In this document: positions 11,480 to 33,317 of the stretch, piece after piece
How positions within the stretch are numbered: the first letter of the stretch is position 1
Layout: each line of letters starts with the position of its first letter
Assembly: GCA_030747075.1 (NCBI GenBank)
Contig: JASLLL010000013.1
Span: 628 to 64,627, forward strand
Length of the DNA: 64,000 bases
Direction: 5' to 3'
Source: Gemmatimonadota bacterium
GTDB lineage: Bacteria > ARS69
Position numbers and translations under genes: made by a program
Notes under the pieces: model-generated
The model's input: the letters and a program-made list of their open reading frames with translations, nothing else
Told to the model about the DNA's origin: nothing
The model's database searches: none

Positions 11480-11481
11480 GC

Positions 11482-13177: not shown

Positions 13178-13192
13178 CGCTGTGCGCACCGC

Positions 13193-14986: not shown

Positions 14987-15457
14987 ATGGCCATTCGCTA
15001 TCTCGGGAGCCGGATGCGGTTCGAGTCGGAGGTCCGCTCGCACCTGAATCGCAAGGGTGTGCCCGGAGAAGCGCAGGAGGCTGCGCTGGAGCGCCTGCGG
15101 GAACTGGGGCTTCTTTCGGATCGGGACACCTGCGCGGCGTGGATCCGGGACCGGATGAACTTCTCGCCCCGGGGCACGATCCATATGCGGCGGGATCTCC
15201 TCCGCCGCGGTGTGGATCGGCAGGTGGTGGAGGACGCGCTCTCCGCCGAACTGGCACCGGGGGCGGAGACGGATCTTGCGGTTCGTGTGCTGAAGGGGCG
15301 GGCGAAGCGTTTTGTCGCAGTGTCGAAGGATGTGGCAAGGCGCAGGATGTGGTCTGTTCTCGCCGGACGGGGGTTTCCTCCGGAGGTGGTTCACGAGGCA
15401 ATAGACCGGTTCGCTGTGGACAGGGAGTCCCCTTTGGAGAGGGCAGGGGAGTTGTGA
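14987..15457 (+). CDS. recX: RecA regulator RecX
   Basis: Three-helix-repeat RecX-like sequence immediately after recA; start may be upstream TTG at 14903. Confidence 0.7.
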   Translation: MAIRYLGSRMRFESEVRSHLNRKGVPGEAQEAALERLRELGLLSDRDTCAAWIRDRMNFSPRGTIHMRRDLLRRGVDRQVVEDALSAELAPGAETDLAVRVLKGRAKRFVAVSKDVARRRMWSVLAGRGFPPEVVHEAIDRFAVDRESPLERAGEL

Positions 15458-15503
15458 TGGGGCGGGCAGGACCCAGCGTCGCGCCCCGGGAAGGGGAAGG
15501 CCC

Positions 15504-18202
<2,699 letters not shown>

Positions 18203-18206
<4 letters not shown>

Positions 18207-19021
18207 TCGATCTGCACTGCCATATCCTCCCCGGACTCGACGATGGTGCCGCGGATGATCACCAGGCGCTGGCCATGGCGAGAGCGGCTGTGGACATGGG
18301 CATTCAGGAGGTGGCGGCCACTTCGCACTTCGGGTTCTTCTCGTTGTTCTCCGCAGACTCCGGGAGCATTCGCGCGGAGCGGGATCGTCTGGTAGAACTC
18401 GTTGCGGCCGAGGGGATTCCTCTGGAGATTCACCCCGGTGCGGAGAACTACTACGGGGAGATGGAGCCCGCAGAGTTTGCATCGCGGGCGATCCCTCTGG
18501 CGGAAGGCCCGTATGTACTCATGGACTTCTCTTTTCGGCGGGTCCCGGAGACTCTGGCGGAGGGTCTCGCCCGGCTTCGGCAGGGGGGGCGGATCCCTGT
18601 GATCGCTCACCCGGAGCGGAATCGGGAAGTTCAGCTGCTGCCGAAGATTGTGGTGGACTGGTTGGATGCGGGAGCCATGCTGCAGGTGAATGCCTCCAGC
18701 CTGACAGGACTGCTTGGCGAAGATGCACAGTTGGCGGCGGAGACACTTCTGGCTGCGGGAGCCGTGCAGATACTCGGCTCGGATGCACACGACCTCAGCC
18801 GACGCCCGTTCTGCCTGAGCGCGGGAGAGGCGGCGGCGGCGGACATCGTGGGAGCGGATGCAGCAGCACGAATGGTACGCGATACCCCCCGGGCCGTGTT
18901 GCGCGGGGAGAAGATAGAAGTTCGGAGCCCGGATTCGGATCGGCTGAGCGGAGGAGCATCGCTCTTCGACCGGATGTTCGGGCGGGGGCGGGGCCAGACC
19001 GAGCAAGGAGATCGAGAGTGA
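18203..19021 (+). CDS. PHP-family Mn-dependent protein-tyrosine phosphatase (CpsB/YwqE-like)
   Basis: MIDLHCHILPGLDDGAADDH...ATSHF PHP motifs; GTG start overlaps alaS stop. Confidence 0.8.
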
Positions 19022-20085
19022 AAGGCCTGATTCTCTCCGGAGGGAAGGGAACACGACTGAGACCCATCACGCACACGAGTGCCAAGCAACTGGTGCCGGT
19101 CGCGAACAAGCCGATCCTCTTCTTCGCCATTGAAGCCGTGCGCGACGCGGGGGTCGAGGAGATCGGGATCGTGGTGGGGGAGACGGGTGCGGAGATTCGC
19201 GCGGCCGTGGGGGACGGGTCCGCGTTCGGCGTGAAGATCACCTACATCCCGCAGGAGAATCCGCTCGGACTGGCGCACGCCGTCAAGGTCTCGCGGGACT
19301 TCCTCGGCGAGGATCCATTTGTGATGTTTCTGGGCGACAACCTCATCAAGGACGGGATCACCCCACTGGTGGACGAGTTCCGGCGAGACGGCCCGAACTC
19401 GCAGATCCTCCTCGCGAGCGTGCCCAACCCGTCGGAGTTCGGGGTGGCGGAGATTGCGGACGGGAAGGTCGTCGGGTTGGAAGAGAAACCCGCGCAGCCG
19501 AAGTCGGAGTTCGCGCTGGTGGGCGTCTACATGTTCGACCGGAGCATTCACGAGGCGGTGGACAACATCCAGCCTTCCGCACGGGGAGAACTGGAGATCA
19601 CCGATGCCATCCAGTATCTGATCGACCACGACTTCGATGTACGCAGCCATGTCATTCGTGGCTGGTGGAAGGACACCGGGAAACTGGAGGACATGCTGGA
19701 AGCCAACCGGATTGTGCTGAGCAGTCTGGAGCGACGCATCGACGGGGAAGTGGACGATCGGAGCCGTATCATCGGAGAGGTCGTCGTGGGGAAGGGGGCG
19801 CGTGTGGAAAACTCCGAACTTCGCGGGCCGCTTATCCTGGGAGAGGGTGCGGTCGTGAAGGACTCCTATGTCGGGCCGTTCACATCCATTTCGGATCAGT
19901 GCGAAGTGCTTTCGTCGGAGGTGGAGTTCTCCATCATCCTGAAGGGCGGGCGCGTCCACGATCTGGACCGGCGTATGGAAGGGAGTCTTGTGGGGCGCAA
20001 CGCCACCATCCTCTCTTCCGCCGTCCGTCCCCGGGCGTACCGGTTCATGGTGGGCGACAACTCCGAGGTCCGGGTCCCCCGATGA
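19018..20085 (+). CDS. rmlA: Glucose-1-phosphate thymidylyltransferase (long form with C-terminal left-handed beta-helix)
   Basis: MKGLILSGGKGTRLRPITHTSAKQLVPV nucleotidyltransferase motif; C-terminal hexapeptide repeats. Confidence 0.85.
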   Translation: MKGLILSGGKGTRLRPITHTSAKQLVPVANKPILFFAIEAVRDAGVEEIGIVVGETGAEIRAAVGDGSAFGVKITYIPQENPLGLAHAVKVSRDFLGEDPFVMFLGDNLIKDGITPLVDEFRRDGPNSQILLASVPNPSEFGVAEIADGKVVGLEEKPAQPKSEFALVGVYMFDRSIHEAVDNIQPSARGELEITDAIQYLIDHDFDVRSHVIRGWWKDTGKLEDMLEANRIVLSSLERRIDGEVDDRSRIIGEVVVGKGARVENSELRGPLILGEGAVVKDSYVGPFTSISDQCEVLSSEVEFSIILKGGRVHDLDRRMEGSLVGRNATILSSAVRPRAYRFMVGDNSEVRVPR

Positions 20086-20981
20086 GCGCCGAACGAGGCG
20101 GTGAGTCCGCATCTCAGGCGACGGTTCGCGTGGCGGCCACCGGGTGCGCGGGCATGCTCGGGAGGGAGCTGGGTGCAGAGGCTGCGGCGCGGGGCGTGCC
20201 GTTCACCGGGTGGGATCTTCCGGACTTTGACCTGACGGATCGAGAAGCCGTGATGCGGGAGATCGGGTCGGCGCGACCGGATGTGGTAATCCATGCCGCC
20301 GCATGGACGGATGTGGATGGCTGCGAGTCGAATCCTTCGAAGGCGTTTCTTGTGAACGGACGGGCCACGGCGCATGTCGTGGAGGCGTGCCGGGAAGCGG
20401 GGGCGCGCGTCGTCCATGTCTCCACGGACTATGTGTTCCCGGGAGACCTCGACCGCCCGTACCGCGAGGACGATCTGCCCGGTCCGCTTTCCGTCTACGG
20501 TTGGTCGAAACTTGCCGGGGAGGAAGCGGTCCGTTCGCTGGGGGACGCGGGTGCCATTGCGCGGACCGCCTGGCTGTATGCGGGCCACGGTGCGAACTTC
20601 CTCCGCACGATGCTGCGTCTCGGCCGGGAGAGGGATTCCCTGGCCGTGGTCGACGACCAGTTGGGTTCACCGACCTTTGCGGGAGATCTTGCGCGGGTGT
20701 TGCTTGATCTCGCGATCGAAGGCGGGAGCGGCACATTTCACACCACCAACACCGGTTCGGTCACCTGGCACGGCTTCGCCAGCGCCATCTTTGCGGCGGC
20801 CGGAATCGGCGTCGAAGTGAAGGCGGTGACGAGTGCGGACTTCCCCCGACCGGCTCACCGCCCCGCGAACTCCGTGTTGCTGGATTCCCGGCTTGCTGAT
20901 GCGGGGATTCATCCGATGCCGTCGTGGGAAGACGGGCTGGCCCGGTGCTTTGCGGGAATGGCGAAGGAAGGTGCGGCATGA
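20082..20981 (+). CDS. rmlD: dTDP-4-dehydrorhamnose reductase
   Basis: Rossmann TGCAGMLGREL, YxxxK, RmlD substrate-binding region; ATGA overlap with rmlA stop. Confidence 0.85.
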   Translation: MSAERGGESASQATVRVAATGCAGMLGRELGAEAAARGVPFTGWDLPDFDLTDREAVMREIGSARPDVVIHAAAWTDVDGCESNPSKAFLVNGRATAHVVEACREAGARVVHVSTDYVFPGDLDRPYREDDLPGPLSVYGWSKLAGEEAVRSLGDAGAIARTAWLYAGHGANFLRTMLRLGRERDSLAVVDDQLGSPTFAGDLARVLLDLAIEGGSGTFHTTNTGSVTWHGFASAIFAAAGIGVEVKAVTSADFPRPAHRPANSVLLDSRLADAGIHPMPSWEDGLARCFAGMAKEGAA

Positions 20982-21826
20982 CGGAAGACAGCGCGGCAGT
21001 CATCGCGGCCGGGCGCGCGGACTACGACTCGGCGGTTCGGCGCGGCCGGGCGATCGACGAACTGAGTGAGTTGTTCCGATTTCGCCATCTGGTCGTACAG
21101 CTCGTGAAGCGGAATGTCACCTCGCGGTACAAGCGGTCATTCCTGGGACTGGCGTGGACTCTCCTTGATCCACTCCTCACGATGGGCGTGATGGCTGCCG
21201 TGTATTCCGCGATTATCCGGGATCGGGTGGAGGCCTTCCCTGTCTACATCTTGTCCGGGCTGGTGATCTGGAATTTCTTCTCGCAGTCGAGCACTCAGGC
21301 GATCACCTACTTCCTGCACGGGCGGGCGCTCCTCGGGCGCGTGTACATGCCCAAGGCGACGATGGGGGTGGCGGCGGTCGGCACCGGTTTCGTCAACCTG
21401 GTGGCGTCCATCATTCCACTGATGGTGTTCATGGTGATCTTCCGATGCCAGTTCACTCCCGCGCTGCTCTTCGTGCCGGTCGCCATTCTGCTGGCGTCTG
21501 CATTCACGCTGGGTGTCGGGCTCCTGGTGTCCGCATGGTCGGTTTTCTTCGGAGACATGGAGAACATTTTCCGGTTTCTCCTGCGGCTGGCCATGTATCT
21601 GTCCGGGATTTTCTACTCGCTGGACATCCTGCCGGAGCAGCTGAGACGGGTTGTCTGGTGTATGCCGACCTATCATCTGATTGAACTGTTCCGATCCCCC
21701 GTTCACACCGGGACTCTCCCGGACGGTCAGAGCATTCTGATTGGAGTCGCATGGTCGCTGGGTTTCCTTCTCGCAGGTTTCGGGTACTTCGCACGAAAGT
21801 CGAATGCGTATGCATACCGACTCTGA
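20978..21826 (+). CDS. wzm: ABC-2 type polysaccharide export permease (Wzm/TagG/KpsM family)
   Basis: 6-TM ABC-2 permease, signature NVTSRYKRSFLGLAWTLLDP; ATGA overlap with rmlD. Confidence 0.85.
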   Translation: MTEDSAAVIAAGRADYDSAVRRGRAIDELSELFRFRHLVVQLVKRNVTSRYKRSFLGLAWTLLDPLLTMGVMAAVYSAIIRDRVEAFPVYILSGLVIWNFFSQSSTQAITYFLHGRALLGRVYMPKATMGVAAVGTGFVNLVASIIPLMVFMVIFRCQFTPALLFVPVAILLASAFTLGVGLLVSAWSVFFGDMENIFRFLLRLAMYLSGIFYSLDILPEQLRRVVWCMPTYHLIELFRSPVHTGTLPDGQSILIGVAWSLGFLLAGFGYFARKSNAYAYRL

Positions 21827-22625
21827 CAGCCCGCGCGTAGCGGAACAGGCGTCGGAGAGACCCCCGGCGCTTCTTCTGTCCGGAGTGTCGGTGGCTTTCG
21901 AATCGCACCGAACACCGGCGGCCACTCTGAAGGAACACCTGATCCGCTGGACCAAGCGGGATCTTGAGAAGAAGAGTGTCCGCGCTCTGGACGGACTGGA
22001 TCTGCGGGTGGATCGGGGAGAGGTGTTTGGGATCGTCGGGAGAAACGGGGCGGGGAAGAGCACTCTCCTGCGCGTGATTTCCGGCATCCTGCACCCGTCT
22101 CGGGGAAGGGTTCGAGTCTGGGGGAAGGTCACGCCGCTTCTCGGCGTCGGTGCCGGGTTCCACGGCGATCTGACCGGGCGGGAGAATATCGCGCTTTACT
22201 CGGCCATCCTCGGGCGAAGCCCGGAGCGTACCCGTGAGCTGGTGGACGACATCATCCGCTTCTCCGAACTTGCGGACTTTATCGACGCGCCGCTTCGCGT
22301 GTACTCCGCGGGCATGTCCGCACGGCTCGGATTCGCCGTCGCACTGGCCGAGTCGCCGGAGGTCCTTCTGGTTGATGAAGTGCTCGGCGTCGGGGACGAA
22401 CAGTTCCGCCGGAAGTGCCGGGACCGCTTTGAAGAGATCCGCAAGGCCGGCGCCACCATTGTCATCGTGACGCACTCGATGTCCGTTGCCAAAGAGATGT
22501 GCGACCGACTGGCGTGGATCGAGAATGGCAAGGTCCGCGAGTGCGGGACTTCCGAAGAAGTGGCCGCATCCTATGTGGAGTTCCAGAAGGCGGTTCGGAG
22601 CGCCTCCACGATCCGCCCCCGCTGA
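21804..22625 (+). CDS. wzt: Polysaccharide export ABC transporter ATP-binding protein (Wzt/TagH family, no C-terminal carbohydrate-binding domain)
   Basis: Walker A GRNGAGKST, ABC signature, about 270 aa NBD only; start overlaps wzm end. Confidence 0.85.
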   Translation: MRMHTDSDSPRVAEQASERPPALLLSGVSVAFESHRTPAATLKEHLIRWTKRDLEKKSVRALDGLDLRVDRGEVFGIVGRNGAGKSTLLRVISGILHPSRGRVRVWGKVTPLLGVGAGFHGDLTGRENIALYSAILGRSPERTRELVDDIIRFSELADFIDAPLRVYSAGMSARLGFAVALAESPEVLLVDEVLGVGDEQFRRKCRDRFEEIRKAGATIVIVTHSMSVAKEMCDRLAWIENGKVRECGTSEEVAASYVEFQKAVRSASTIRPR

Positions 22626-22788
22626 TCGGAACCGCACTTCTCGCTCGCGGACGGGGCGAGCCGGGTCGCGGGCGGCCGCTTGACTCGGCTCCTTTCGCGT
22701 GGGAGCATCGCTCGACCCGGCCACTGATTCCCACCGTTCTGCGCAGCCCGGGCAGGTTCCCCGAGAGCCTGTGCGGAGGAGGCGCCCC

Positions 22789-25700
22789 TTGCGACCCGTG
22801 ATTCTCGTGCTTGGCATGCATCGAAGCGGCACTTCCGCAGTGGCGGGGGCCGTACGGATGCTCGGCGTAGACCTCGGGGATTCGCTGATGCCGGGACGCG
22901 CGGGGGAGAACCCACAGGGTTTCTTCGAAGACACCCGCGTCATGGCCGCCAACGAGAACATTCTGGAGTCCGCAGCGTCCTCGTGGGATGACCCCTTTGG
23001 AATCGATCCGGGCTGGTTTGATTCGGATGAAGGGAAGCCCCATGCGCGAGACCTTTCATCGCTTCTCGTGGGGATGTTCCCGGAGGATGCGCTGTGCGGA
23101 GTGAAAGACCCGCGCATCTGTCGGTTGCTTCCCGTGTGGACGGCCGCACTGGAGCAGGCGGGACTCGCGCCCCATGTCCTTCTGGTGACCAGGCCTTGCG
23201 CGGAGGTCGCCGATTCGCTGGCTCGAAGGAACGGCTTCTCGCGTGAGAAGTCGGCCTTCCTCTGGGCCGACCATGTCCTTCGGGCGGAGGAGGGGACGCG
23301 GAGGATCCCGCGAGTGTTCCTGCCCTATGCGGACCTGCTGGAGAATCCCGCCGGGGTGCTGGCCGGAGCGGGACACGCTCTGGGAATCACCTGGCCGGTA
23401 TCTCCGGAGGCGGCCTCGACACGGCTGCGCGCATTTGTCACCGGCGAGCTTCGGCACCACCGGGTCGGGGACGCGGAGAAGTCGCATCGTCGCGCAGACG
23501 GATTCGTGCGGGAACTGGATCTGCTGCTGGAAAGCGTCGCGGGCGGTTGCGGCGGCGGCGGCACGACCCGGTTTGACCGAATGGCGGAGCAAGTGGCGGC
23601 CGTCCTTCCCCGAATGGATCCGCTCTGGCAGGAACACTTGAGCCGTGGCGTCCGGGTGGCGGATCAAGTTGCGGGGCTGGAACAGACCTTGTCCGATCGG
23701 ACCGAGTGGCTGCGTGCGTCGGCGGAGGAAGTGAAGAGTCTTCGGGCCGCCGTGGAGGAGATGCGCAACGCCGGATCCAAAGACGCGACCCGCCTGCGGG
23801 TGGAAGTGGAGGAGATTCGCGCCGCGACGCTGGATGTCGGCCGGCGCGTGGATCGTCTGGACTTCTTCCGGCTTGGCATGCGACTGGTCCGGTTCTCTCG
23901 ACGGGTGGCGGGCCGCCTGGTGCGCGGCGCGGCGCGGCGAAGGAGCGCCCTTCACGGCAGACTCCGCGACGCATTCCTGAAGCGGCCGGTGACCCGCGCG
24001 CGAGTGACTGGGATTGCACTGCCTCAGCATGAACATCCGGATGTCTCGATCATCATCCCCGTGTTCAACCAGACGGGTCATACCGTCCGGTGCCTGGAAT
24101 CGCTGGCGGCATTGCGGGAGGAGACCTCCTTCGAGGTGGTCCTGGTGGATGACGCCTCCACGGCCGCGTCGATTGGCCTGCTGGCGTCGGTAAGGTCGAT
24201 CCGACTCGTGCGAAACGAACGCAATCTCGGGTTTGTGCATTCGTGCAATCGGGGCGCGAAGGAGGCGAAGGGGCGGCACCTTCTCTTCCTGAACAACGAC
24301 ACGCGCGTGGAGCCGGGTTTCCTGGACCGGCTTCGGGCCTCTTTGGAGGAGTTCCCGGATGCGGGGATTGTGGGTGCCCAACTGGTGTACCCGGACGGCC
24401 GCCTGCAGGAATCGGGCGGGATCGTCTGGGAGGACGCCAGTGCGTGGAATTACGGTCACGGGAGAGACCCGTCCGCACCGGAGGTTTCGTATCTTCGCGA
24501 AGTCGATTACTGCTCCGGTGCATGCATCCTGGTGGACCGGAGTCTGTTCAACGAACTGGGCGGGTTCGATGAGCGGTACGCTCCCGCCTACTACGAAGAT
24601 GTGGATCTTGCTTTTCGCGTTCGCGAGGCCGGTCGACGCGTGCTTGTCAACCCTGTGGCGCGTGTCATTCATTGCGAAGGTGCCACTTCCGGTACGGACC
24701 CGGAGAGTGGTGTGAAGCGGTACCAGGTGCGCAACCAGCAGATCTTCCTGGATCGATGGCGGAAGGAACTTGGCTGCCACGGCCGAAACGGGGAAGACCC
24801 GGAACGGGCGAAGGAGCGGAAGGCCCGTTCCCGCGTCCTCGTCATCGACCACCGTATGCCGACTCCCGATCAGGACGCGGGATCGCAGCGAATCCAATGG
24901 ATGATGCGGATTCTTCGCGACCTCGGCCATCGAGTGACCTTTCTGCCCGACAATCTACTCCCGTCCGAACCCTACGGGGCAGACCTTCGCGCGCTGGGCG
25001 TGGAGGTATGGCAGTCACCGCACCTCAGGACGATCCGCCACTTCCTGGAGTGCCGGGGGAGCGAGTTCGATCTTGTGATTCTGAGCCGTCTGGGTACGGC
25101 GGGAACTCATATCGATGATGTGCGGAGGCTCTGTCCGCGGGCGCGGGTCGTCTTCGATACGGTGGACCTGCACTTTCTTCGTGAAGAGCGGGCCGCAGAG
25201 TTGACCGGGAGTGCCGCCGATCTCGCGGCCGCGCGGGAGACACGCACGCGGGAACTCTCGGTGGCCCGCCGTGCGCACGAGACGCTGGTCGTCAGTGAAG
25301 AGGAACGCGAACTCATCCAGAGCATCGATCCGAATCTCGCCGTGCGTATCGTCCCCACCATCCACGAGACTTCCGCGTCCGGGCTTCCATTCGAGGAGCG
25401 GCACGGACTTCTCTTCGTGGGGGGGTTCGAGCATCCGCCCAATGCTGATGGCGTCCGGTGGTTCGTGGAGACCGTGCTGCCGATGGTACGGGAGGAACTG
25501 CCGGATGTTTCGCTTCGGATCGTGGGCAGCAAGCCGACACCGGAGATGGATGCTCTCGCGGGACGGGGCGTGGATGTCGCCGGGTGGGTGCCGGATCTCG
25601 AAGCGCTTCTCCGCGAGTCCCGGGTATCCATCGCGCCGCTCCGGTTTGGCGCCGGGGTGAAGGGGAAAGTCTGCGAGAGCCTCGCGCACGGGTTGCCGAC

Positions 25701-25971
25701 CGTGGGAACGAGCATCGCCTGCGAGGGGATGGCGCTCACTCATCGAACAGACATCTGCATCGCGGACACGGCGCACGACTTCGCGCGGGAAGTGGTGCGT
25801 CTGCATCAGGATCGTGCCTTGTGGACGCAGTTGGCCTCAGCGGGGCAGGAAGTGATCCGGAACCGGTTCTCTCCCGCCGTAGCCAGGGACGCACTTCGAC
25901 GACTGGGGCGCGGCCCCGCCGAATCCCCCCGGGGGGGACTCCTGGCGGTGGAAGCCCAACTACTCTCATGA
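22789..25971 (+). CDS. Multidomain glycan-modifying enzyme: sulfotransferase - coiled-coil - GT2 - GT4(GT-B)
   Basis: N-term PAPS 5'-PSB motif GMHRSGTS and 3'-PB-like VKDPR; central heptad-rich helix; GT2 (VSIIIPVFN...VVLVDDAS); C-terminal GT4 with E-x7-E (GVKGKVCESLAHGLP). TTG start with GGAGGA RBS. Confidence 0.8.
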   Translation: MRPVILVLGMHRSGTSAVAGAVRMLGVDLGDSLMPGRAGENPQGFFEDTRVMAANENILESAASSWDDPFGIDPGWFDSDEGKPHARDLSSLLVGMFPEDALCGVKDPRICRLLPVWTAALEQAGLAPHVLLVTRPCAEVADSLARRNGFSREKSAFLWADHVLRAEEGTRRIPRVFLPYADLLENPAGVLAGAGHALGITWPVSPEAASTRLRAFVTGELRHHRVGDAEKSHRRADGFVRELDLLLESVAGGCGGGGTTRFDRMAEQVAAVLPRMDPLWQEHLSRGVRVADQVAGLEQTLSDRTEWLRASAEEVKSLRAAVEEMRNAGSKDATRLRVEVEEIRAATLDVGRRVDRLDFFRLGMRLVRFSRRVAGRLVRGAARRRSALHGRLRDAFLKRPVTRARVTGIALPQHEHPDVSIIIPVFNQTGHTVRCLESLAALREETSFEVVLVDDASTAASIGLLASVRSIRLVRNERNLGFVHSCNRGAKEAKGRHLLFLNNDTRVEPGFLDRLRASLEEFPDAGIVGAQLVYPDGRLQESGGIVWEDASAWNYGHGRDPSAPEVSYLREVDYCSGACILVDRSLFNELGGFDERYAPAYYEDVDLAFRVREAGRRVLVNPVARVIHCEGATSGTDPESGVKRYQVRNQQIFLDRWRKELGCHGRNGEDPERAKERKARSRVLVIDHRMPTPDQDAGSQRIQWMMRILRDLGHRVTFLPDNLLPSEPYGADLRALGVEVWQSPHLRTIRHFLECRGSEFDLVILSRLGTAGTHIDDVRRLCPRARVVFDTVDLHFLREERAAELTGSAADLAAARETRTRELSVARRAHETLVVSEEERELIQSIDPNLAVRIVPTIHETSASGLPFEERHGLLFVGGFEHPPNADGVRWFVETVLPMVREELPDVSLRIVGSKPTPEMDALAGRGVDVAGWVPDLEALLRESRVSIAPLRFGAGVKGKVCESLAHGLPTVGTSIACEGMALTHRTDICIADTAHDFAREVVRLHQDRALWTQLASAGQEVIRNRFSPAVARDALRRLGRGPAESPRGGLLAVEAQLLS

Positions 25972-25987
25972 CAGGAGGCGACCAGAA

Positions 25988-27451
25988 ATGGCATTGACCG
26001 CACTGGCCGGTCCACCCGGAGTGGGGAAGACCACCCACCTCATTGGAAGGCTCGAGGACGCGCAGAATGCCGGGAATCCCACGGCGCTCTTTTTGTGCAG
26101 CGACTCGGACGATCTTCGATCGCGCCCGAATGTCCGGGAAGGCGGCACCATGGGATGTCGCACTCCCGGGATGGGCGCGACCATTGACCACTTCGTTTCG
26201 GCAGCGGAAGCAGGCCGTATCCTCTCGGAACTTCCCGCCGGGAGCCTGGCGGCCTTCGACGAAGCGGCGTGGTTCGGTGTGGACATCGTGGAGGCGTGGA
26301 TCGAAGCGGAGCGGCGAGGAGTGGATGTCGTGGTGTCTTCGCTCTCCGAGCAGCAGGTGGCAATCCTGAAAGAGCGAAGCTACCCGGTCACGCGGCTTAC
26401 CGTACCCTGCATGCTTTGCGGGAAGGACCGGGGGCGTCACTCGCACGAACTGTTCCACACGGCGGAGCGCGGTTTCGTCGTGGTGTGCGATGCCTGTCGC
26501 GAGGCGGTCGCCAGGAACCAATGCCGATCGGAACCTTCTTCTCTGGATGGTGAACTCTGCGAGGAGCTCACTTCGGAACTCAGGCGCATGAAGCCCTTCC
26601 CGGGAAAGGAGCACGCGTATCAGCCGGTCTTCGGGTTGGACCTCCCGGGCTGGGAACTGGTGCGGGGAGACACGCCGATTCGCGCGGACCTCATTCGAGA
26701 GGTGCTGGAGGCGGCCTTCCCGGCGTGGAGCGCGTCATCGAGGGCGGGCGAAGCCGACGGTCGTCCCAGCTTCATCGATCTGGGATGCTGCACCGGGTTT
26801 TTCTGCGAGTACTTTGCGGCGCGGGGATGGGAGGCCTGGGGGCTGGACATCGACGAGGACTTCATCGCGCTGGCTCGGCGCGTGTCACAGGCTCTTGGAA
26901 GCGGAGTGGAGTACTGCCAGTCCGCGCTTCTTCCCCATGTGCAGGGCCATCCCGGCGCCCGGTTTGATGTGACCACTTCGTTCGCGACCGTGCAGTGGGT
27001 GATCGCCCAGAGCGGTCTGGATGCGGGGCTGGAGTGCTTCGACTGGATCTTCGGCGCGGCGCGGAAGATGTGTGTTCTTGAGATGGGCTACTCGGAAGAG
27101 GAGATCTACCGGGAGAAGCTGCCCGTGCGCATCGACCGCGAGTGGGTTGAAGAACTCATGCGAACCCGTGGAGGATTCGACGAGGTTCTCGTGATTCCGA
27201 AGGGATCGCGGGGCGTCTGGCGAGATCTCTTCATCGGTCTGAAGGATCCGGAAGTGTGCGGAGTGACCGTGTCCGGGGAGGGCGCGGCCGAACCGGGCCG
27301 ACCCGCGCCCGTATGGAACGCGGCCGGTATTCTAGGGCTGGCAGCGCGTGCCGTGCGAAACCCGGGGCGCGTCGTGCAACTGGGCGGGAAGGCCGTACAG
27401 GATCCGGCGAGGGCGATGCGCGAACTGGGGCGGCGGTTGCGCGGCGGTTGA
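25988..27451 (+). CDS. Fusion protein: thymidine-kinase-fold P-loop + Zn-ribbon domain / class I SAM-dependent methyltransferase
   Basis: N-term GPPGVGKTT (Walker A), FDEAAWF (TK Walker B-like), CMLCG...CDAC zinc ribbon in TK order; C-term motif I IDLGCCTG and post-I acidic residue; AGGAGG RBS. Confidence 0.7.
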   Translation: MALTALAGPPGVGKTTHLIGRLEDAQNAGNPTALFLCSDSDDLRSRPNVREGGTMGCRTPGMGATIDHFVSAAEAGRILSELPAGSLAAFDEAAWFGVDIVEAWIEAERRGVDVVVSSLSEQQVAILKERSYPVTRLTVPCMLCGKDRGRHSHELFHTAERGFVVVCDACREAVARNQCRSEPSSLDGELCEELTSELRRMKPFPGKEHAYQPVFGLDLPGWELVRGDTPIRADLIREVLEAAFPAWSASSRAGEADGRPSFIDLGCCTGFFCEYFAARGWEAWGLDIDEDFIALARRVSQALGSGVEYCQSALLPHVQGHPGARFDVTTSFATVQWVIAQSGLDAGLECFDWIFGAARKMCVLEMGYSEEEIYREKLPVRIDREWVEELMRTRGGFDEVLVIPKGSRGVWRDLFIGLKDPEVCGVTVSGEGAAEPGRPAPVWNAAGILGLAARAVRNPGRVVQLGGKAVQDPARAMRELGRRLRGG

Positions 27452-27459
27452 TCGTTCGT

Positions 27460-29106
27460 TCACCGAAGCGTGGACGCCAGCCTCGCGCGATGCGGATCCA
27501 GGAAGGGGCATTCGGACTCCCGGTTCATCGCGATCGGGAGCAGCGGGTCTTCCGTCAGGCGCGATCTCCACCGCTGCCGCATGGTGATGACTTCCCGCGG
27601 GTCAAGGAGACGGCTGCGGGTGCGGGTCTCGTGGTGGATCAACTCGGCACGCGGCTCGTACAGAATCCGCCCTCCGCGCTGAGTCAGCCGGAGGCACAGG
27701 TCGACATCGTTGAACGAGACGGGCAGATCTCCGGCGTCGAGTCCCCCCAACTCCTCAAAGGCGCCGCGACGAACCAGGAGGCAGGCGGCGGTGGCCGCCG
27801 AGACTTCCCGTGCGGTACGAGCTCCGGTTCCCGGAAAAACCTCGCGCCCTCCCGAAGAACCCCACTCCCGACCCAGATGACCCGCGACCGTGCCGATCCC
27901 GAGCCCAATGCCCGCGTGCTGGCAGGTGCCGTCGGGATAGAGCAGCCGCGCGCCCACCGCGTCCACGCCCGGCCAGTGCATGGCGGCGACGAGGTGCGTG
28001 AGCCATGCGCCGTCGATCGCTTCCGTGTCGTTGTTGAGCATCAGGAGGAAGTCCCCGCTCGCTTCCGCTGCGGCTGTGTTCGTGATCCGGGCGAAGTTGA
28101 AGGAGCCTCCCTCGCGAATCACGCGTACCCCGGCGTGCTTTTCGGCCTCTTCCAGCAGGTGAAGCGCACGCGGATCTGTCGTGAGGTGATCCACCAGAAT
28201 CACCTCGTGACGGACTCCGCCATCCAGCCGCTCGATGGAGTTGAGGAGTCGGCCGAGCAGGTCCGGCTGATCTCGCGTCGGGATCAGGAGGGACACGAGG
28301 GGGTCGGCATCGATCCGGGGGTGGATGCTCAGTGTCTCCGGATCGTCTCCCGCACTCACCGGGGCCGCCGTCCCCCGATCGGCGAGAAACGATGCCACCG
28401 CATCCATCCGCCCGCGCAGAGGGCCGAAGAGCGGGTCGTCGTCGCGCTCCGGCCGACGAAGGACCGGCAGCGGCAGGTGGCGCACAGCGTCGGCTTCGTC
28501 GGTCGCCCGAAGAAGCACATCGGTCCAGTCGGCTCCCTCCCGCAGTCGTCTTGAGGCAGCCTGCGCGGGGATGGCGGTCGCGGCGCCCGGGAACCTACCG
28601 GGGTGCGTCAGCGCGAGAAGCGGACTCCACGCCGGCTTGAGATCACCTCGGAGGGAGCCACCGGGAGCAAGCCGGACTTCGTCCGCGTACAGCACACCGC
28701 CCTCGTCGAGATCGGCAATGTGCCCAAGCCACGCATTTCCCGAATCGGACACGAACTCGTCGCCCGCAGCCAGCGCGACCCACCTCTCGCCGGGACGCTC
28801 CACGGCGGGAGGCGCCTCCCCGCGGCACACATCACTTGCGGGGAGACCGGCGCCGAGGAGCGAATCCCGGGTTCGCTGTTCGTCCCCCTCTCCGAAGAGC
28901 AGGACGCGGACGGGGGCCGGGGAGCGACAAACGCGAACCGCGGGACGCGCCCGGGCCACGGCGGACAGCCATCGCCGGATCTGTTCAGCCTCGGTGCGCC
29001 GCTGCTCGATGCGGCCGCGGAGGCGTCGCACGATTCTGCCGAACGCATGGAACCCCTCGGCGCGAATGAGAGTGCGGGCTGCGCGCACGCGGTGAAGAAG
29101 GTTCAC
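27460..29106 (-). CDS. Glycosyltransferase family 2 with about 300-aa N-terminal domain of unknown function
   Basis: C-terminal GT2: LVSLLIPTRDQPDLL...VILVDHLTTD...MLNNDTEA...; start chosen as GTG 4 nt after upstream GT4 stop (could extend to 29424). Confidence 0.7.
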   Translation of the reverse strand: MNLLHRVRAARTLIRAEGFHAFGRIVRRLRGRIEQRRTEAEQIRRWLSAVARARPAVRVCRSPAPVRVLLFGEGDEQRTRDSLLGAGLPASDVCRGEAPPAVERPGERWVALAAGDEFVSDSGNAWLGHIADLDEGGVLYADEVRLAPGGSLRGDLKPAWSPLLALTHPGRFPGAATAIPAQAASRRLREGADWTDVLLRATDEADAVRHLPLPVLRRPERDDDPLFGPLRGRMDAVASFLADRGTAAPVSAGDDPETLSIHPRIDADPLVSLLIPTRDQPDLLGRLLNSIERLDGGVRHEVILVDHLTTDPRALHLLEEAEKHAGVRVIREGGSFNFARITNTAAAEASGDFLLMLNNDTEAIDGAWLTHLVAAMHWPGVDAVGARLLYPDGTCQHAGIGLGIGTVAGHLGREWGSSGGREVFPGTGARTAREVSAATAACLLVRRGAFEELGGLDAGDLPVSFNDVDLCLRLTQRGGRILYEPRAELIHHETRTRSRLLDPREVITMRQRWRSRLTEDPLLPIAMNRESECPFLDPHRARLASTLR

Positions 29107-29110
29107 GGGT

Positions 29111-30223
29111 TCATCTCCCCGCCGCCCTGCGATATCCGTCCCGCGTCGCCCGCGCAGTTTCCGCCCAGTCGAAGAGGGCGGCGCGGGCCGGGCCGAGTGC
29201 CGCGAGTTCCCCGCGACGGCGGTCGTCCATCCAGAGCCGCGCGAGGGCATCCGCAAGCGCACGGGCGGTCTCCACCGATGCAAACGCGGCCGCGTCGCCC
29301 AGGACTTCGCGATGCGGAGGGATGTCGCTGGCGAGCACCGGCCCGCCGCAGGCCGCCGCTTCCAGCGCGGGGAGCCCGAAGCCTTCGCATCGCGAGGGAA
29401 CGAGTACCAGTCTCGCTCCGGCATACAGAAGCGGAAGGTCGGTGTCGGTTACGGGACACAGGATGCGGACGCGCGAAACCCCCGCGGCAATGGGTTCCAG
29501 TCTGGCGCGGGTTTCGTGATCGCGTGCCGGGATGACGAGTTCCGCGTCGGCGAGTCCCGCGGCGCGAAACGCACGGAGCGCGCCGTCGAGATTCTTGTGG
29601 GGCCGATGCGAAGCGACGCAGAGGAGGAAGGGCCGTGTGAGACCCCGACCCGCCAGGAACTCCGTCACGCTCTCAGGCGATGGCGGAGCGAACACAGGCG
29701 CAACGGCGTGGGGGATCACCGTGAACCGGTCGGCCGGAGCGCGAAGGCACCGGGTCAGCTCCGCCCGGGCCGCTTCCGAGCCGGTGAAGAGAACGGCGGA
29801 CGACCGGATCGACCACGCCATCATGATGCGGGCGTAGAGCCGGTGGAGCGGAGAGCGGGGGAAGAGCAAGTGGATGGGGTCATGCATCGTGACCACCACG
29901 CGGCACCCGGGAGCCGCCGAGCGCACATAGTGCGGGAAGTGCAGAACATCGAGCTGATGCCGGCTTGCCGCGCCACGGAAGGCCGCCAGTTCCTTCACGC
30001 TGTAGAGCGGCGCACGGCATTGCGCCAGCCGGAAGCGCTCCGGGTCGAGGAGTTCAGGCAGTCCCCCCGGAAGCGCACGGAGATCCGGCTCCGGAAGAAA
30101 GAGCGTGTACCGCTCCGGACCGTGGAGTCCGGCGAGCCCCGTGAGGAGTCCCTCAAGGTATCGTCCGATTCCGAAGTCGCGGATCTTGCGCGCATCGATG
30201 CCGATGTGCAGCGGAGCAGTCAT
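29111..30223 (-). CDS. Glycosyltransferase family 4 (GT-B)
   Basis: GT4 C-terminal domain with EGFGLPALEAAACGGPVL (E-x7-E); ATG overlaps stop of upstream GT4 (ATGA). Confidence 0.8.
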   Translation of the reverse strand: MTAPLHIGIDARKIRDFGIGRYLEGLLTGLAGLHGPERYTLFLPEPDLRALPGGLPELLDPERFRLAQCRAPLYSVKELAAFRGAASRHQLDVLHFPHYVRSAAPGCRVVVTMHDPIHLLFPRSPLHRLYARIMMAWSIRSSAVLFTGSEAARAELTRCLRAPADRFTVIPHAVAPVFAPPSPESVTEFLAGRGLTRPFLLCVASHRPHKNLDGALRAFRAAGLADAELVIPARDHETRARLEPIAAGVSRVRILCPVTDTDLPLLYAGARLVLVPSRCEGFGLPALEAAACGGPVLASDIPPHREVLGDAAAFASVETARALADALARLWMDDRRRGELAALGPARAALFDWAETARATRDGYRRAAGR

Positions 30224-31359
30224 CGGTCGGCGGCCTCCATGGCTTTGCGGTAGGTGTCCAGCGTAGCGCGTGCGGCTGCTTTCCATGAGAACTTCTTCGC
30301 CCGGACCTGCCCCGCGCTCCTCAGTGCGGCATGGAGTTCGGGATCGTTGAGCGCGCGGAGAATGCCGCGGGCGATCGAGCCCGGTTCGTGCGGATCGATC
30401 ATGACGGCGGCTTCGCCCGCGATCTCCCGAATGGATGGGATCGCGCTGGCCACCACGGGCACGCCGCACGCCATCGCTTCCAGTACGGGCAGACCGAATC
30501 CCTCTTCGAACGAAGGGAAGACGAACGCTTCCGCCCCGGAGTAGAGCGCCGGGAGATCCTTCGCATCCACGAATCCGGTTGTGAGGACGGAATCCGCGGG
30601 GTCGTCACCCTCCAGGGCGCGGACGAACTCGCTCTCAAGCCATGCGGCCTTCCCCGCCACGACGAGGCGGAGGTTGCTTTCGTGGGCGTTGCGCACTTCC
30701 CGAAAGGCACGCAGCAGTCCGGGGAGGTTCTTGCGAGGCTCCAGATTCCCCACGAAGAGAAGGTACGGTTGCGAGATGTTCAGCTTGTGCAGGACCTCGT
30801 CCACCCGCGTGGGAGTCTCCGGGGAGAAGCGGGATGCCACGCCGTGGGGGATGGCGTCGATCCTGTGGGCCGGAATGTGGAAGGCGGCGCACAGATTCTC
30901 CCGCATGGCACCCGATCCCGTGATGACGCGGGTCGCGCGGCGCAGGGACTTCGGGATGAGCCAGCGCATGTAGGCGGCGTATCGACGGGGGATGGTCTGC
31001 GGGTGCGTAAAGGCGATCAGGTCGTGGATTGTGGCAACAGCGACGGGCTTTCCGGGGAAGAGGGGGACGAGGTAGTTCGGTCCGTGGATGAGATCCACGC
31101 CGAGCTTTCTGGCCCGGCGGGGCAGGACGAAGTGCTCCCATGCGTCACCCGACGGATGGCTTTCGTGAGAGAAGGGGGCCTCGATCAGCTGGAATCGACC
31201 GTCGAGGTCGAGCCCCCGCAGGGCCGTCTCCGCAGGGGCAAGGAGCAGGAACTCGTGGTCGCTGTCGATCTGCGAGAAGCCCCTCACCAGCTCAAGGACA
31301 TAGTTCCCCACGCCGGAGAACTCACGCCCCACCGTTCGGGCATCGAGGAGGATTCGCAT
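30220..31359 (-). CDS. Glycosyltransferase family 4 (GT-B)
   Basis: MRILLDARTV... GT4 N-domain; EEGFGLPVLEAMACGVPVV E-x7-E. Confidence 0.85.
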   Translation of the reverse strand: MRILLDARTVGREFSGVGNYVLELVRGFSQIDSDHEFLLLAPAETALRGLDLDGRFQLIEAPFSHESHPSGDAWEHFVLPRRARKLGVDLIHGPNYLVPLFPGKPVAVATIHDLIAFTHPQTIPRRYAAYMRWLIPKSLRRATRVITGSGAMRENLCAAFHIPAHRIDAIPHGVASRFSPETPTRVDEVLHKLNISQPYLLFVGNLEPRKNLPGLLRAFREVRNAHESNLRLVVAGKAAWLESEFVRALEGDDPADSVLTTGFVDAKDLPALYSGAEAFVFPSFEEGFGLPVLEAMACGVPVVASAIPSIREIAGEAAVMIDPHEPGSIARGILRALNDPELHAALRSAGQVRAKKFSWKAAARATLDTYRKAMEAADR

Positions 31360-31492: not shown

Positions 31493-32623
31493 GTGCGCGT
31501 TGCTCTGGTTCACGACTGGCTGACGGGAATGCGGGGCGGGGAGAGAGTCCTCGAAGTCTTCTGCGACCTCTTCCCGGGGGCGGACCTCTTCACGCTGGTT
31601 CATATTCCCGGCGCAGTCTCTTCGGTGATTGAAGACCGCAGAATCATCACCAGTCCGCTCTCGCGCCTGCCGGGAATCGCCCGGAGTTACCGGTACTTCC
31701 TCCCGCTCTTCCCGGCGATGGTGGAGCGCTTCGACCTTCGCGACTACGATCTCGTGGTGTCGTCCTCGCACTGCGTGGCGAAGGCCGTTCGGCCCGGTCC
31801 CGGCGCACGCCATGTCTCCTATGTGCACACGCCCATGCGGTATCTCTGGGATCGCTACGAAGACTACTTCGGAGGCGGGTGGGCCGGGCCCGCCACGCGC
31901 GCGGCCATGGCGACGCTGCGCGGCCCCTTGCGTCGCTGGGATCGGCGGACCTGCGATCGCGTGGATGCTTTCGTCGCGAACTCGCGCTTCGTCGCCGAGG
32001 CGATCGACCGGATCTATGGACGCACCGCGGAGGTGGTCCATGCGCCGGTGGATACGGATCTCTTCAGCGAGAGTGGGGAACCGCGCGGGGAGGAGTGGCT
32101 GGTCGTCTCCGCATTCGCCCCGTACAAGCGCGTGGATGTGGCCATTCGTGCCGCGCGCCGAGCGGGAGTCCGGCTTGCGATTGTCGGCGTGGGGCCGATG
32201 GAGAGCGATCTCCGTCGGCTTGCCGGTTCGGGCGTCCGCTTCCTCGGGTCGGTCCCGGCGGACGAACTCGTAAGGCTCTACTCCACGGCGCGGGGTCTTC
32301 TCTTCCCCGGCGTGGAGGACTTCGGGATCGTCCCCCTGGAGGCGATGGCGTGCGGATGCCCGGTGGTCGCGCTCGACCGGGGCGGAGCGCTGGAGACGGT
32401 GGTGGGTGCCGAGTGGGCCGGAGACCCGGCTGGCGTTTCGACCGGGGCCACGGGGCTTTTTGTCGGCGAACAGACGCCGGAGGCTTTTGCGCACGGAATC
32501 ACAGTGGTAGAGAGCGCCGAGGTCGCCTTCGATCCGGACGCGTGCCGGAAACGGGCCGAGGAGTTCTCCACCGGGGTATTCCGGAGCCGAATGGCGCAGA
32601 TTCTGGGAATCGTCAGCGCCTGA
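31493..32623 (+). CDS. Glycosyltransferase family 4 (GT-B)
   Basis: MRVALVHDWLTGMRGGERV...; VEDFGIVPLEAMACGCPVV; divergent from minus-strand GT block; GTG start with GGGAGGGG RBS. Confidence 0.85.
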   Translation: MRVALVHDWLTGMRGGERVLEVFCDLFPGADLFTLVHIPGAVSSVIEDRRIITSPLSRLPGIARSYRYFLPLFPAMVERFDLRDYDLVVSSSHCVAKAVRPGPGARHVSYVHTPMRYLWDRYEDYFGGGWAGPATRAAMATLRGPLRRWDRRTCDRVDAFVANSRFVAEAIDRIYGRTAEVVHAPVDTDLFSESGEPRGEEWLVVSAFAPYKRVDVAIRAARRAGVRLAIVGVGPMESDLRRLAGSGVRFLGSVPADELVRLYSTARGLLFPGVEDFGIVPLEAMACGCPVVALDRGGALETVVGAEWAGDPAGVSTGATGLFVGEQTPEAFAHGITVVESAEVAFDPDACRKRAEEFSTGVFRSRMAQILGIVSA

Positions 32624-32735
32624 CCTTCCGACGCTGGGCGTCTTGACACGGGTGCGACGCGGGTGGGACTCTGGCATGGGTTTCCGGGAACCCCGGACCG
32701 GGGTGACTCCGGAACGGGGCCGGGGAGGGGGAGTC

Positions 32736-33317
32736 ATGGACATCGACGGAATCCGGGAGTCCATGACGGAGACCGTGCGCGTGCTGGAGCGTCTCCGGGA
32801 CGAGACCGCTCCGGCAGTGGCCGCCGTCTCCGAGGAGCTTGTTCGGTGTGTGACGGCCGGTGGGCGCATCCTGGTCTGCGGCAATGGAGGGAGCGCGGCG
32901 GACTCCCAGCACATGGCCACGGAACTCACGGTCCGGTTCCGGAAGCAGCGCCGTGCGATTTCCGCGCTTGCCCTCACGGTGGATTCCTCGGTGCTTACCG
33001 CAGCTTCCAACGATCTGGGCTTCGCGAAGGTGTTCAGTCGCCAGGTGGAAGCTCACGGGAAGGCGGGAGATGTGCTGATCGCGATCTCCACCAGTGGGAA
33101 CTCACCGAATGTGGTGGAGGCGGTCCGTGAGGCCCGCGTGCGGGGACTGGTCACCGTGGCGCTCACGGGAGCGGCGGGGGGGGCGCTTGCCTCGGAAGTG
33201 GACCACTGGATCGGCGTGCCTTCCGAAGAGACTCCACAGATTCAGGAAGCGCATCTCGTGGTGGAACACCTGCTCTGCGAAGCCATGGAAGACGCGGTGG
33301 CGGAGGATGCGCCGTGA
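32736..33317 (+). CDS. gmhA: D-sedoheptulose-7-phosphate isomerase (SIS domain)
   Basis: GGRILVCGNGGSAADSQHMATE...ISTSGNSPNV GmhA signature. Confidence 0.85.
   Translation: MDIDGIRESMTETVRVLERLRDETAPAVAAVSEELVRCVTAGGRILVCGNGGSAADSQHMATELTVRFRKQRRAISALALTVDSSVLTAASNDLGFAKVFSRQVEAHGKAGDVLIAISTSGNSPNVVEAVREARVRGLVTVALTGAAGGALASEVDHWIGVPSEETPQIQEAHLVVEHLLCEAMEDAVAEDAP

Follow-up and report, generated by a model that had tools for sequence, protein, structure and literature searches.

Nearly all that is established about the terminator-ruler-polymerase principle of glycan assembly comes from Klebsiella and Escherichia coli, where the head domains characterised in the prototypes transfer methyl, methyl-phosphate or Kdo groups. 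What unites proteins of the WbbB/ORF6-O7 type is their architecture; they do not form a sequence family. In both prototypes a coiled-coil ruler lies between the terminator and two polymerase glycosyltransferases (PMC11231755). WbbB, of K. pneumoniae O12 and Raoultella terrigena, has a beta-Kdo transferase (GT99) as its modifying head and GT102 and GT103 as its C-terminal polymerase modules; it is encoded with wzm-wzt, and the O12 Wzt bears a carbohydrate-binding module (PMC11231755). ORF6 of K. pneumoniae O7, whose two glycosyltransferase modules make a rhamnose-containing chain, is arranged as methyltransferase-kinase, coiled coil, GT2 and GT2, with a methyl-phosphate-cap head, export gated by a carbohydrate-binding module, and extra stand-alone glycosyltransferases in the cluster (PMC11231755). 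In WbdD (E. coli O9a and K. pneumoniae O3), terminator and coiled-coil ruler form a free-standing methyltransferase-kinase; the polymerase it recruits, WbdA, is a protein of its own, with tandem GT4 mannosyltransferase modules and no coil. A carbohydrate-binding module is present on Wzt in every experimentally terminated system reviewed (PMC11231755).

Here, we describe a protein of this layout with a predicted PAPS-type sulfotransferase as its head, encoded in a 64,000-nucleotide stretch of DNA from an uncultured Gemmatimonadota bacterium (the whole stretch analysed, hereafter the window; features lie on the forward strand unless stated). The gene (22789..25971, stop codon included) specifies a sulfotransferase, a helical spacer, a GT2 and a GT4-like module in 1,060 amino acids, reading from a TTG start at 22789, 7 nt downstream of GGAGGAGG, within a stop-to-stop open reading frame at 22699-25971. 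A first-pass annotation had proposed a single polypeptide of about this length with four modules, and the intact reading frame agrees with it, as does a second copy, called at 1,059 aa, on an independent ENA contig (L081) that is 99.8% identical over 9.2 kb. Scans for promoters and terminators between 22400 and 27700 found none. GC3 frame analysis did not tell real from spurious reading frames in this 65% GC DNA, and genes were therefore called by Pfam instead.

With a probability of roughly 85%, we read the protein as a polymerase with a tethered sulfotransferase acting in an ABC-transporter-dependent pathway. The first-pass annotation had likened it to WbdA, but WbbB and ORF6 are the closer prototypes: unlike WbdA, the window protein pairs a GT-A with a GT-B module and brings its own head and probable coil. 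It shares with WbbB the order of a modifying head, a spacer (here a probable coiled coil) and two C-terminal glycosyltransferases, and the adjacent wzm-wzt, and differs in the chemistry of the head, in its polymerase families and in a Wzt that lacks the carbohydrate-binding module. No sequence relationship with WbbB was detected, no WbbB chain being among the PDB sequence matches of the window protein. ORF6-O7 likewise joins a non-glycosyltransferase head to a coil and two glycosyltransferases, both of them GT2 in that protein. WbdD differs in acting on a separate polymerase, whereas the head described here is fused to its own. Of the features of the architectural class, Wzm and Wzt, an initiating phosphoglycosyltransferase and two glycosyltransferases after the spacer are all present in the window.

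The sulfotransferase domain is placed at aa 1-250 (22789..23538). Searches with the single sequence were uninformative for this region: phmmer against the PDB gave no match within aa 1-400, and against Pfam the window protein alone matched Sulfotransfer_3 only at E = 0.18, over the P-loop, scoring 12.5-14.8 bits against a gathering cut-off of 27. Recognising the domain took a profile of the family and a structure model. All 18 family members matched Sulfotransfer_3 at E <= 1 (best 1.4e-10), eight of the 18 matched Sulfotransfer_1, and relatives such as P0047, at 66.8 bits, exceeded the Sulfotransfer_3 cut-off. Both Pfam families had been predicted for this protein by the first-pass annotation; they are found in its relatives, but its own sequence stays below threshold. 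The family profile gave weak sulfotransferase matches among PDB sequences (best E 0.007). An AlphaFold model of aa 1-290 has a pLDDT of 87.8, and its best 21 Foldseek matches in the PDB are all PAPS sulfotransferases (E 6e-5 to 2e-3, TM-score 0.35-0.51), with kinases from rank 22 onward. Model and matches support a strongly diverged PAPS-type sulfotransferase fold, as had been proposed for residues 1 to about 330.

Conserved motifs point in the same direction. The 5'-phosphosulfate-binding loop GMHRSGTS (aa 9-16; 22813..22836) is present at the N-terminus as first annotated, and neither alignment A1 nor A2 shows any variation at H11, R12, S13, G14, T15 or S16. The VKDPR motif (aa 105-109; 23101..23115) had been taken for a 3'-phosphate-binding element. 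The motif is real, with K106, D107, P108 and R109 invariant in A1, and possibly supplies a catalytic lysine, but the classical 3'-phosphate-binding pattern is probably R135-x7-S143 (RPCAEVADS; 23191..23217), in which R135 and S143 are invariant and which HMMER aligned with RNPKDTAVS of the cytosolic sulfotransferase 5x2b in a low-scoring sub-alignment. In 28 full-length homologues sharing 36-49% identity with the window protein, H11-S16, E47, K106, R135 and S143 do not vary. Invariance of PAPS-contacting and candidate catalytic positions at such divergence is what an active enzyme would show, and the head is thus likely to be an active sulfotransferase. Sulfotransfer_3 enzymes such as NodH, and mycobacterial Stf0, share with it the PAPS-type fold, the R-S-G-T loop and the R-x7-S motif; they are single-domain proteins whose substrates are small glycolipids or Nod factors, whereas the head subfamily has a coiled-coil tail and stands at TM-scores of 0.35-0.5 and 12-17% identity from them.

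Between head and polymerase lies a helical spacer (aa 259-396; 23563..23976), with helices at 259-276, 278-328, 334-354 and 359-396 in the full-length monomer model, where pLDDT across the spacer is 40-68. A heptad-like core (approximately 288-362) is followed by an Arg-rich amphipathic helix (359-396). A hydrophobic periodicity of 3.5 residues runs through 278-355 and is equalled by about one shuffle in 1,000. The heptad-rich helix of about 150 aa described at first is therefore recovered as a helical spacer of about 138 aa, but not as a continuous heptad run: only some 75 residues (288-362) pass the heptad heuristic. The spacer is probably an oligomeric coiled coil. Across 118 homologues its length ranges from 137 to 633 aa while the catalytic domains are conserved, a five-fold variation such as would be expected of a ruler. 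The window protein, at 155 aa against a median of 292, is near the short end of the family.

Glycos_transf_2 (PF00535) matches the GT2/GT-A domain (aa 415-665; 24031..24783) at 1.7e-21 and 77.3 bits, well above its cut-off of 23.3, and the module resembles the catalytic domain of ppGalNAc-T in sequence and in fold (fold E 6e-15). Its motifs DDAS (454, as first annotated), NNDT (502) and EDVD (603-606, within YYEDVD from 601) are conserved. The GT-B domain (aa 680-1040; 24826..25908) matches Glyco_trans_1_4 (PF13692) at 9.6e-24 and 84.7 bits (cut-off 27) and a TIGR03087-like model at 4e-35, and Foldseek pairs it with ManT (7qsg) and BshA (6d9t) at target TM-scores of 0.66-0.71. The domain thus has a GT-B fold and a Glycos_transf_1-type C-terminal part, but the E-x7-E motif attributed to it is absent from the expected site, which is occupied by the invariant PLR952-FGAGVKGK-xx-E963; strings of the E-x7-E form do occur at 831 and 894, away from that site. 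We therefore call the domain GT4-like.

The gene follows wzm-wzt within a 17-kb glycan cluster, so that the assignment to an ABC-transporter-dependent pathway, made in the first-pass annotation, is well founded. Genes for a CpsB-like PHP phosphatase, an RmlA-like nucleotidyltransferase and an RmlD-like reductase (18203..20981) precede a Wzm-like ABC-2 permease (20978..21826; Pfam ABC2_membrane; 282 aa as called on L081) and a Wzt-like ATPase of 273 aa (21804..22625). The latter matches ABC_tran only; Pfam finds no Wzt_C carbohydrate-binding module, and 27 aa follow the nucleotide-binding domain. Directly downstream of the fusion lies a 487-aa protein in which a thymidine-kinase-like P-loop domain is fused to a WbdD-like SAM methyltransferase (25988..27451); WbdD is the top-ranking PDB match to this methyltransferase domain. 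Three stand-alone glycosyltransferases, one GT2 and two GT4, are candidate primer or adaptor enzymes (27460..31359, reverse strand). They are followed by a further GT4, a SIS-domain (GmhA-like) isomerase and a Bac_transf polyprenyl-phosphate sugar-phosphate transferase, the initiating enzyme (31493..34852). The window reading frames that were scanned yielded no gene for PAPS synthesis.

The fusion is not peculiar to this locus. The first-pass annotation had supposed such a four-module protein to be undescribed. That may hold for the literature, in which we found the layout itself but no paper on a sulfotransferase-headed fusion, a mention in a review of O-antigen assembly being possible. In databases the fusion is not rare: its module order recurs in 118 of the best 120 homologues, hence in at least 118 proteins. 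Of 80 GT2-GT4 cassette loci, taken from different species, ten have the sulfotransferase head. At L019 and L047 the same cassette, at about 47% identity, has a SAM methyltransferase at the head position, accompanied in L019 by a coiled-coil Pfam match. The longer homologues bear a different methyltransferase, which follows the GT4 module on its C-terminal side; phmmer found the window's own P-loop-methyltransferase as a domain in none of them. The head subfamily comprises 12,816 cluster representatives at E <= 1e-30, many of which are stand-alone head-plus-coil proteins, and 68 of 71 stand-alone sulfotransferase-head proteins of at least 380 aa have a heptad tail. One such protein is encoded in an ABC-transporter rhamnan-type cluster (L085), another directly upstream of separate GT2 and GT-B genes (L086). 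A Wzt without the carbohydrate-binding module is found at five other sulfotransferase-type loci (L001, L063, L071, L082 and L085), but the rule that these loci always have a short Wzt is disproved by L083 and L084, where the same fusion adjoins a Wzt bearing Wzt_C.

From this organisation we infer sulfation, capping and a ruler function, and propose that this one polypeptide assembles a cell-surface glycan. A lipid-linked primer would be built at the membrane's inner face by the Bac_transf enzyme together with the stand-alone GT2 and GT4 glycosyltransferases, and the C-terminal GT-A and GT-B modules would alternate as the polymerase. The head, as a presumably active PAPS-dependent sulfotransferase held off the polymerase by a spacer of about 138 aa, would by analogy reach only chains of a minimum length. 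Sulfation of the non-reducing terminal sugar would then block extension and partly set chain length, and Wzm-Wzt would export the finished chain. The combined polymerase, modifier and molecular ruler of the first-pass annotation fits the same layout. Terminal capping with sulfate, measured by the coil, is the more tentative part of this proposal; it is the likeliest of the readings considered, but we put it a little short of even. A eukaryotic analogy exists in the HNK-1 sulfotransferase (HNK-1ST), which sulfates the terminal residue of matriglycan and so stops elongation by a two-activity polymerase (PMC10955480); as a Golgi enzyme of unrelated architecture and without a ruler, it serves as an analogy only. 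In the literature, we found no bacterial terminal sulfate cap.

Several observations count in favour of capping. The order of head, spacer and two glycosyltransferases is that of WbbB and ORF6-O7, both proven terminator-ruler-polymerases; a methyltransferase, a known type of terminator, takes the head position in L019 and L047; the stand-alone head-plus-coil proteins have the format of WbdD; and L083 and L084 carry Wzt_C, a hallmark of cap-gated export. The capping reading is weakened by the window Wzt, which is without that module, and the short spacer with its low pLDDT in the monomer model, the downstream P-loop-methyltransferase as a second candidate modifier, the sub-threshold Pfam score of the head and the lack of a PAPS-synthesis gene in the scanned reading frames also count against it.

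Some of the same evidence leads to the main rival reading, which we judge unlikely though of real weight, that the tethered sulfotransferase decorates one sugar per repeat unit as the chain leaves the polymerase. The helical region would then only oligomerise or scaffold and, as in K. pneumoniae O2a, chain length would depend on how much transporter there is relative to polymerase. In-chain sulfated rhamnose, within the repeat unit, is documented in ABC-exported capsules made with stand-alone sulfotransferases (PMC11766843, PMC11641403), and both the short spacer and a Wzt resembling those of systems without cap-gated export (PMC11231755) would suit such an enzyme. However, decoration does not account readily for a head-coil unit in the format of a WbdD-type terminator, for its replacement by a methyltransferase at the same position or for the pairing of some relatives with a Wzt_C-bearing Wzt, and a five-fold range of spacer lengths has no obvious purpose in a decorating enzyme.

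If the capping reading is correct, bacterial glycan chains would have in sulfate a terminator of a new chemical class, and a portable head-plus-ruler unit, free or fused to a GT2-GT4 cassette, would cap and measure ABC-exported glycans. We hold this broader claim slightly more loosely than the cap itself, and equally its extension to more than 10,000 protein clusters in Gemmatimonadota, Verrucomicrobiota, Planctomycetota, Omnitrophota and Proteobacteria, often without a carbohydrate-binding module on the transporter. Many environmental bacteria would then carry sulfate-capped surface polymers, and export independent of a cap would exist beside ruler-based termination; the sulfotransferase-type systems without a Wzt carbohydrate-binding module bear directly on whether such termination needs cap-gated export. 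A sulfotransferase head would bring new capping chemistry, carry the principle into environmental phyla that have been little studied and offer a signature by which sulfated surface glycans could be predicted from genome sequences. Such glycans matter for the cycling of carbon and sulfur in sea and soil and for recognition by phages and grazers, and are relevant to the enzymatic production of sulfated polysaccharides, whose sulfotransferases are under-characterised (PMC11625862, PMC11641403).

It is improbable that the head is non-catalytic and that its sulfotransferase fold serves recognition or regulation by binding PAP(S) or an anionic chain end. The low Pfam score of the window sequence and the negative scan for PAPS genes would be compatible with such a role, but the 5'-phosphosulfate-binding loop, R135, S143, E47 and K106 would hardly all remain invariant among homologues this divergent. 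Slightly less probable still is a kinase that phosphorylates the chain end and, with the neighbouring methyltransferase, forms a methyl-phosphate cap like those of E. coli O9a and K. pneumoniae O3 and O7. Sulfotransferases and P-loop kinases have a common fold, as the kinases lower in the Foldseek list reflect, and a WbdD-like methyltransferase is indeed encoded next door, but that gene already has a P-loop domain of its own. We reject the kinase reading because the loop reads G-x4-G-T-S without a Walker-A lysine, the R-x7-S motif is specific to PAPS enzymes, and the top structural matches and all Pfam matches are sulfotransferases.

Finally, a frameshift or assembly error joining separate sulfotransferase and glycosyltransferase genes, which split forms such as the three adjacent head-coil, GT2 and GT-B genes of Tautonia sociabilis (L086) might suggest, can be rejected as far as sequence data can show, since the same layout is an unbroken reading frame on L081 and in ten other species and recurs in the 118 database proteins, and a one-codon indel between the window and L081 copies keeps the frame.

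The longest open reading frame over the region spans 22699-25971 (+), and a TTG start at 22789, 7 nt downstream of GGAGGAGG, gives a product of 1,060 amino acids (22789-25971). In the full-length model (pLDDT 83), an N-terminal head (aa 1-250) is followed by a helical spacer, a GT-A domain (aa 419-660) and a GT-B domain (aa 681-1040).

The head has a PAPS sulfotransferase fold and belongs to a diverged subfamily that Pfam models recognise poorly. Searched on its own, the N-terminus gives Sulfotransfer_3 at no better than E = 0.18, with the match at the P-loop; when its 290 N-terminal residues are aligned with 17 homologues, Sulfotransfer_3 is matched by all 18 sequences (best 1.4e-10) and Sulfotransfer_1 by 8. 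The best PDB sequence matches of the profile built from this alignment are cytosolic sulfotransferases (E = 0.007). An AlphaFold model of aa 1-290 (pLDDT 87.8, pTM 0.88) was compared with the PDB by Foldseek, and the best 21 matches are all PAPS-dependent sulfotransferases (E 6e-5 to 2e-3, TM-score 0.35-0.51), the matches including TPST1/2, the sulfotransferase domains of CurM and OLS, Stf0, 3-OST-3 and cytosolic SULTs. On these results, the sulfotransferase fold that the first-pass annotation had placed within residues 1-330 is indeed there. The loop H11-R12-S13-G14-T15-S16, correctly picked out as the 5'-PSB motif, is invariant in the family (this alignment and a second one with 28 full-length homologues), as are N41, G44, E47, W66, K106-D107-P108-R109, R135, S143, R147, E167, R171, R175 and H223. 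The motif VKDPR had been taken for the 3'-PB motif, but this is probably wrong, as R135-x7-S143 has the classical 3'-PB spacing and is aligned by HMMER with RNPKDTAVS of a SULT. The lysine of VKDPR (K106) may rather correspond to the catalytic-site lysine of TPST2 and SULT1E1.

The spacer is modelled, at low confidence as a monomer, as helices at aa 259-276, 278-328, 334-354 and 359-396. Its hydrophobic periodicity of 3.5 residues is equalled by about 1 in 1,000 shuffles, and a heptad heuristic marks aa 288-362. In Pfam searches with the 1,060-aa protein, aa 420-590 match Glycos_transf_2 (1.7e-21) and aa 873-1008 match Glyco_trans_1_4 (9.6e-24), in agreement with the expected GT2 and GT4 domains; in Foldseek, the GT-A part resembles the ppGalNAc-T catalytic domain and the GT-B part ManT and BshA. 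The canonical GT4 E-x7-E, which had been reported for the GT-B module, is absent from its usual position, where an invariant PLR952-FGAGVKGK-xx-E963 is found instead. Separately, a conserved motif, S-x-S-W-(R/K)-x-T-x-P-L-R, occurs at the C-terminal end of the coiled coil (about 23850-23900 in the window, aa 354-372). It is clear in the homologues P0248, P0148 and P0140 and in most rows of the full-length alignment, and degenerate in the relatives nearest to the window protein and in the window protein itself. The motif is present in stand-alone sulfotransferase-coil proteins, and in fused proteins it lies between coil and GT2; docking or membrane contact are guesses at its role.

Homologues with the same domain order, a search for which had been suggested, are plentiful. 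At least 1,000 proteins matched the query, and among the best 120, in which domains were read, 118 have the order sulfotransferase, GT2, GT4. Many are 1,020-1,150 aa long, with alignments that cover 97-99% of the query at 36-50% identity. Head and GT2 are separated by 137 to 633 aa in these 118 (median 292), the 155 aa of the window protein being at the short end, and the intervening stretch holds at least 28 heptad-like residues in 109. The GT2-GT4 pair itself is a very common cassette: in species-representative genomes, a relative is encoded by 596 or more candidate stretches. Its N-terminal extension varies among 80 fetched loci. A sulfotransferase head is present in 10 of the 80 (from Omnitrophota, Verrucomicrobiota, Chthoniobacterales, Udaeobacter, Gammaproteobacteria, Rhodospirillaceae and Syntrophaceae). 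A SAM methyltransferase takes the head position in L019 and L047, the former also with a coiled-coil Pfam match; L075, L016, L005 and L004 carry additional modules of GT4 or GT2 type. One Isosphaeraceae MAG (L014, 3030-10735) carries three consecutive paralogous cassette genes of ~830-850 aa each. Some longer homologues continue beyond the GT4-like domain, with a SAM methyltransferase in P0017, P0014 and P0036 and a WbsX-type glycosyltransferase in P0042; these modules mirror the window order of big gene, then methyltransferase gene.

A profile of the head alone found 12,816 representatives in a 50%-clustered library at E <= 1e-30, almost always with the domain N-terminal, in proteins of 259-2,256 aa. 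In an annotated collection, the profile best matches stand-alone proteins 300-550 aa long, and a heptad-rich tail is present in 68 of 71 stand-alone head proteins of at least 380 aa. In Puniceibacterium antarcticum (L085), such a gene has an RgpF-GT2-WbsX protein, a WsaF-like protein and Wzm/Wzt as neighbours; in Tautonia sociabilis (L086), it immediately precedes separate GT2 and GT-B genes. The same parts therefore exist both fused and split.

The gene belongs to a ~17-kb cluster that begins right after alaS and comprises, in order, a CpsB-like phosphatase, an RmlA-like nucleotidyltransferase, RmlD, Wzm, Wzt (273 aa), the sulfotransferase-GT2-GT4 gene, a P-loop-methyltransferase gene, three opposite-strand glycosyltransferases (one GT2, two GT4), a GT4, a SIS-domain isomerase and a Bac_transf initiating phosphotransferase. 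This is an ABC-transporter-dependent glycan locus, for which O-antigen, capsule or another polymer are all possible products. The remaining window is housekeeping (recA, dnaX, recR, ispE-prs-rplY-pth, H+-pyrophosphatase, smc, ftsY and selA among others), and PAPS-synthesis genes were not found among the window ORFs scanned. The organism is an uncultured Gemmatimonadota bacterium: AlaRS and Prs of the window have sequences identical to the MAG proteins MDP6802711 and MDP6802730. The CpsB/CapC-like PHP phosphatase gene (18203-19021) begins before the alaS stop (18206) is passed and runs beyond the start of the RmlA-like gene (19018), so that the cluster looks translationally coupled to the tRNA synthetase gene. 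The stand-alone GT2 at 27460-29106 (-) has an N-terminal part without Pfam match, ~180-290 aa long according to which start codon is the true one. In the cluster of one relative (L084, JGI 3300010051; 6173-18200), the fused protein is accompanied by Wzt with Wzt_C, an extra stand-alone sulfotransferase, a sulfatase and a GHMP kinase / SIS / nucleotidyltransferase / hydrolase set of GDP-heptose type; since the window also has a SIS-domain gene (32643-33317), a heptose-type sugar in its glycan is possible.

Fold, motifs, architecture and context of the protein are established, and beyond these we infer. In Klebsiella and E. coli O-antigen systems, the terminating enzyme has been shown experimentally to sit at the distal end of a coiled-coil molecular ruler, and the polymerase modules are either fused to this terminator-ruler (WbbB in O12, ORF6 in O7) or recruited (WbdD with WbdA) (PMC11231755). 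The fused and split distribution of head, coil and glycosyltransferases reproduces, by analogy, this scheme. The head would then be a chain terminator, putting sulfate on the non-reducing end, a reading to which we give a probability of roughly 45% and which we favour because of the head's position, its replaceability by a methyltransferase and the variable spacer. In L083 and L084 the same fusion adjoins a Wzt bearing Wzt_C, a carbohydrate-binding module known to read terminal caps (PMC11231755). Against capping, Wzt_C is missing from the Wzt of the window and from that of five other sulfotransferase-type loci, the coil of the window protein is short, and the literature searched yielded no sulfate cap from bacteria. 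Alternatively, a tethered sulfotransferase might decorate the chain internally, which we think rather unlikely but credible, as sulfated rhamnose within the chain is documented for ABC-exported capsules (PMC11766843, PMC11641403). That the head is non-catalytic seems improbable, and that it is a kinase slightly more so. A frameshift fusing separate genes can practically be discounted: an independent contig from a metagenome (L081, ENA) matches window 19789-28971 at 99.8% identity and contains this gene too, with a called length of 1,059 aa and an in-frame indel of one codon relative to the window copy, so the single ~1,060-aa polypeptide originally proposed is real.

The likeness to WbbB and to ORF6 of O7 would be one of working principle: no sequence relationship of the window protein to either was detected, the glycosyltransferase families differ, and no WbbB chain is among its PDB sequence matches. 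The resemblance to WbdA-like polymerases put forward in the first-pass annotation does not hold, because the window protein has one GT-A and one GT-B module together with its own head and coil. Its suggestion that the four-module fusion is undescribed stands as regards publications, no paper on the architecture having been found in the literature searched, but not as regards databases, where the architecture is abundant and annotated only as 'GT2 family glycosyltransferase'. Nor did that literature yield a paper in which both WbdD and sulfotransferase are mentioned. The O-antigen cluster of Aeromonas salmonicida A450 encodes a 216-aa sulfotransferase-domain protein, flanked by a 438-aa Wzt and a homologue of WbbB; that O-antigen is not reported to contain sulfate, and the authors offered no explanation for the protein (PMC4483657). 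It may be another sulfotransferase within a terminator-type system.

The next gene in the window (25988-27451, +) encodes a rare 487-aa fusion of an N-terminal thymidine-kinase-like P-loop domain, with GPPGVGKT and two CxxC pairs, to a C-terminal SAM methyltransferase, which among PDB entries best matches the O-antigen terminator WbdD (E 6e-4). The fusion could be a kinase-methyltransferase capping pair of a third type, or it could act on the same glycan as a second modifier. A search of 5.8 billion proteins turned up only 9 relatives, and in all three contexts seen (the window and the loci L088 and L089) the gene adjoins sulfotransferases.
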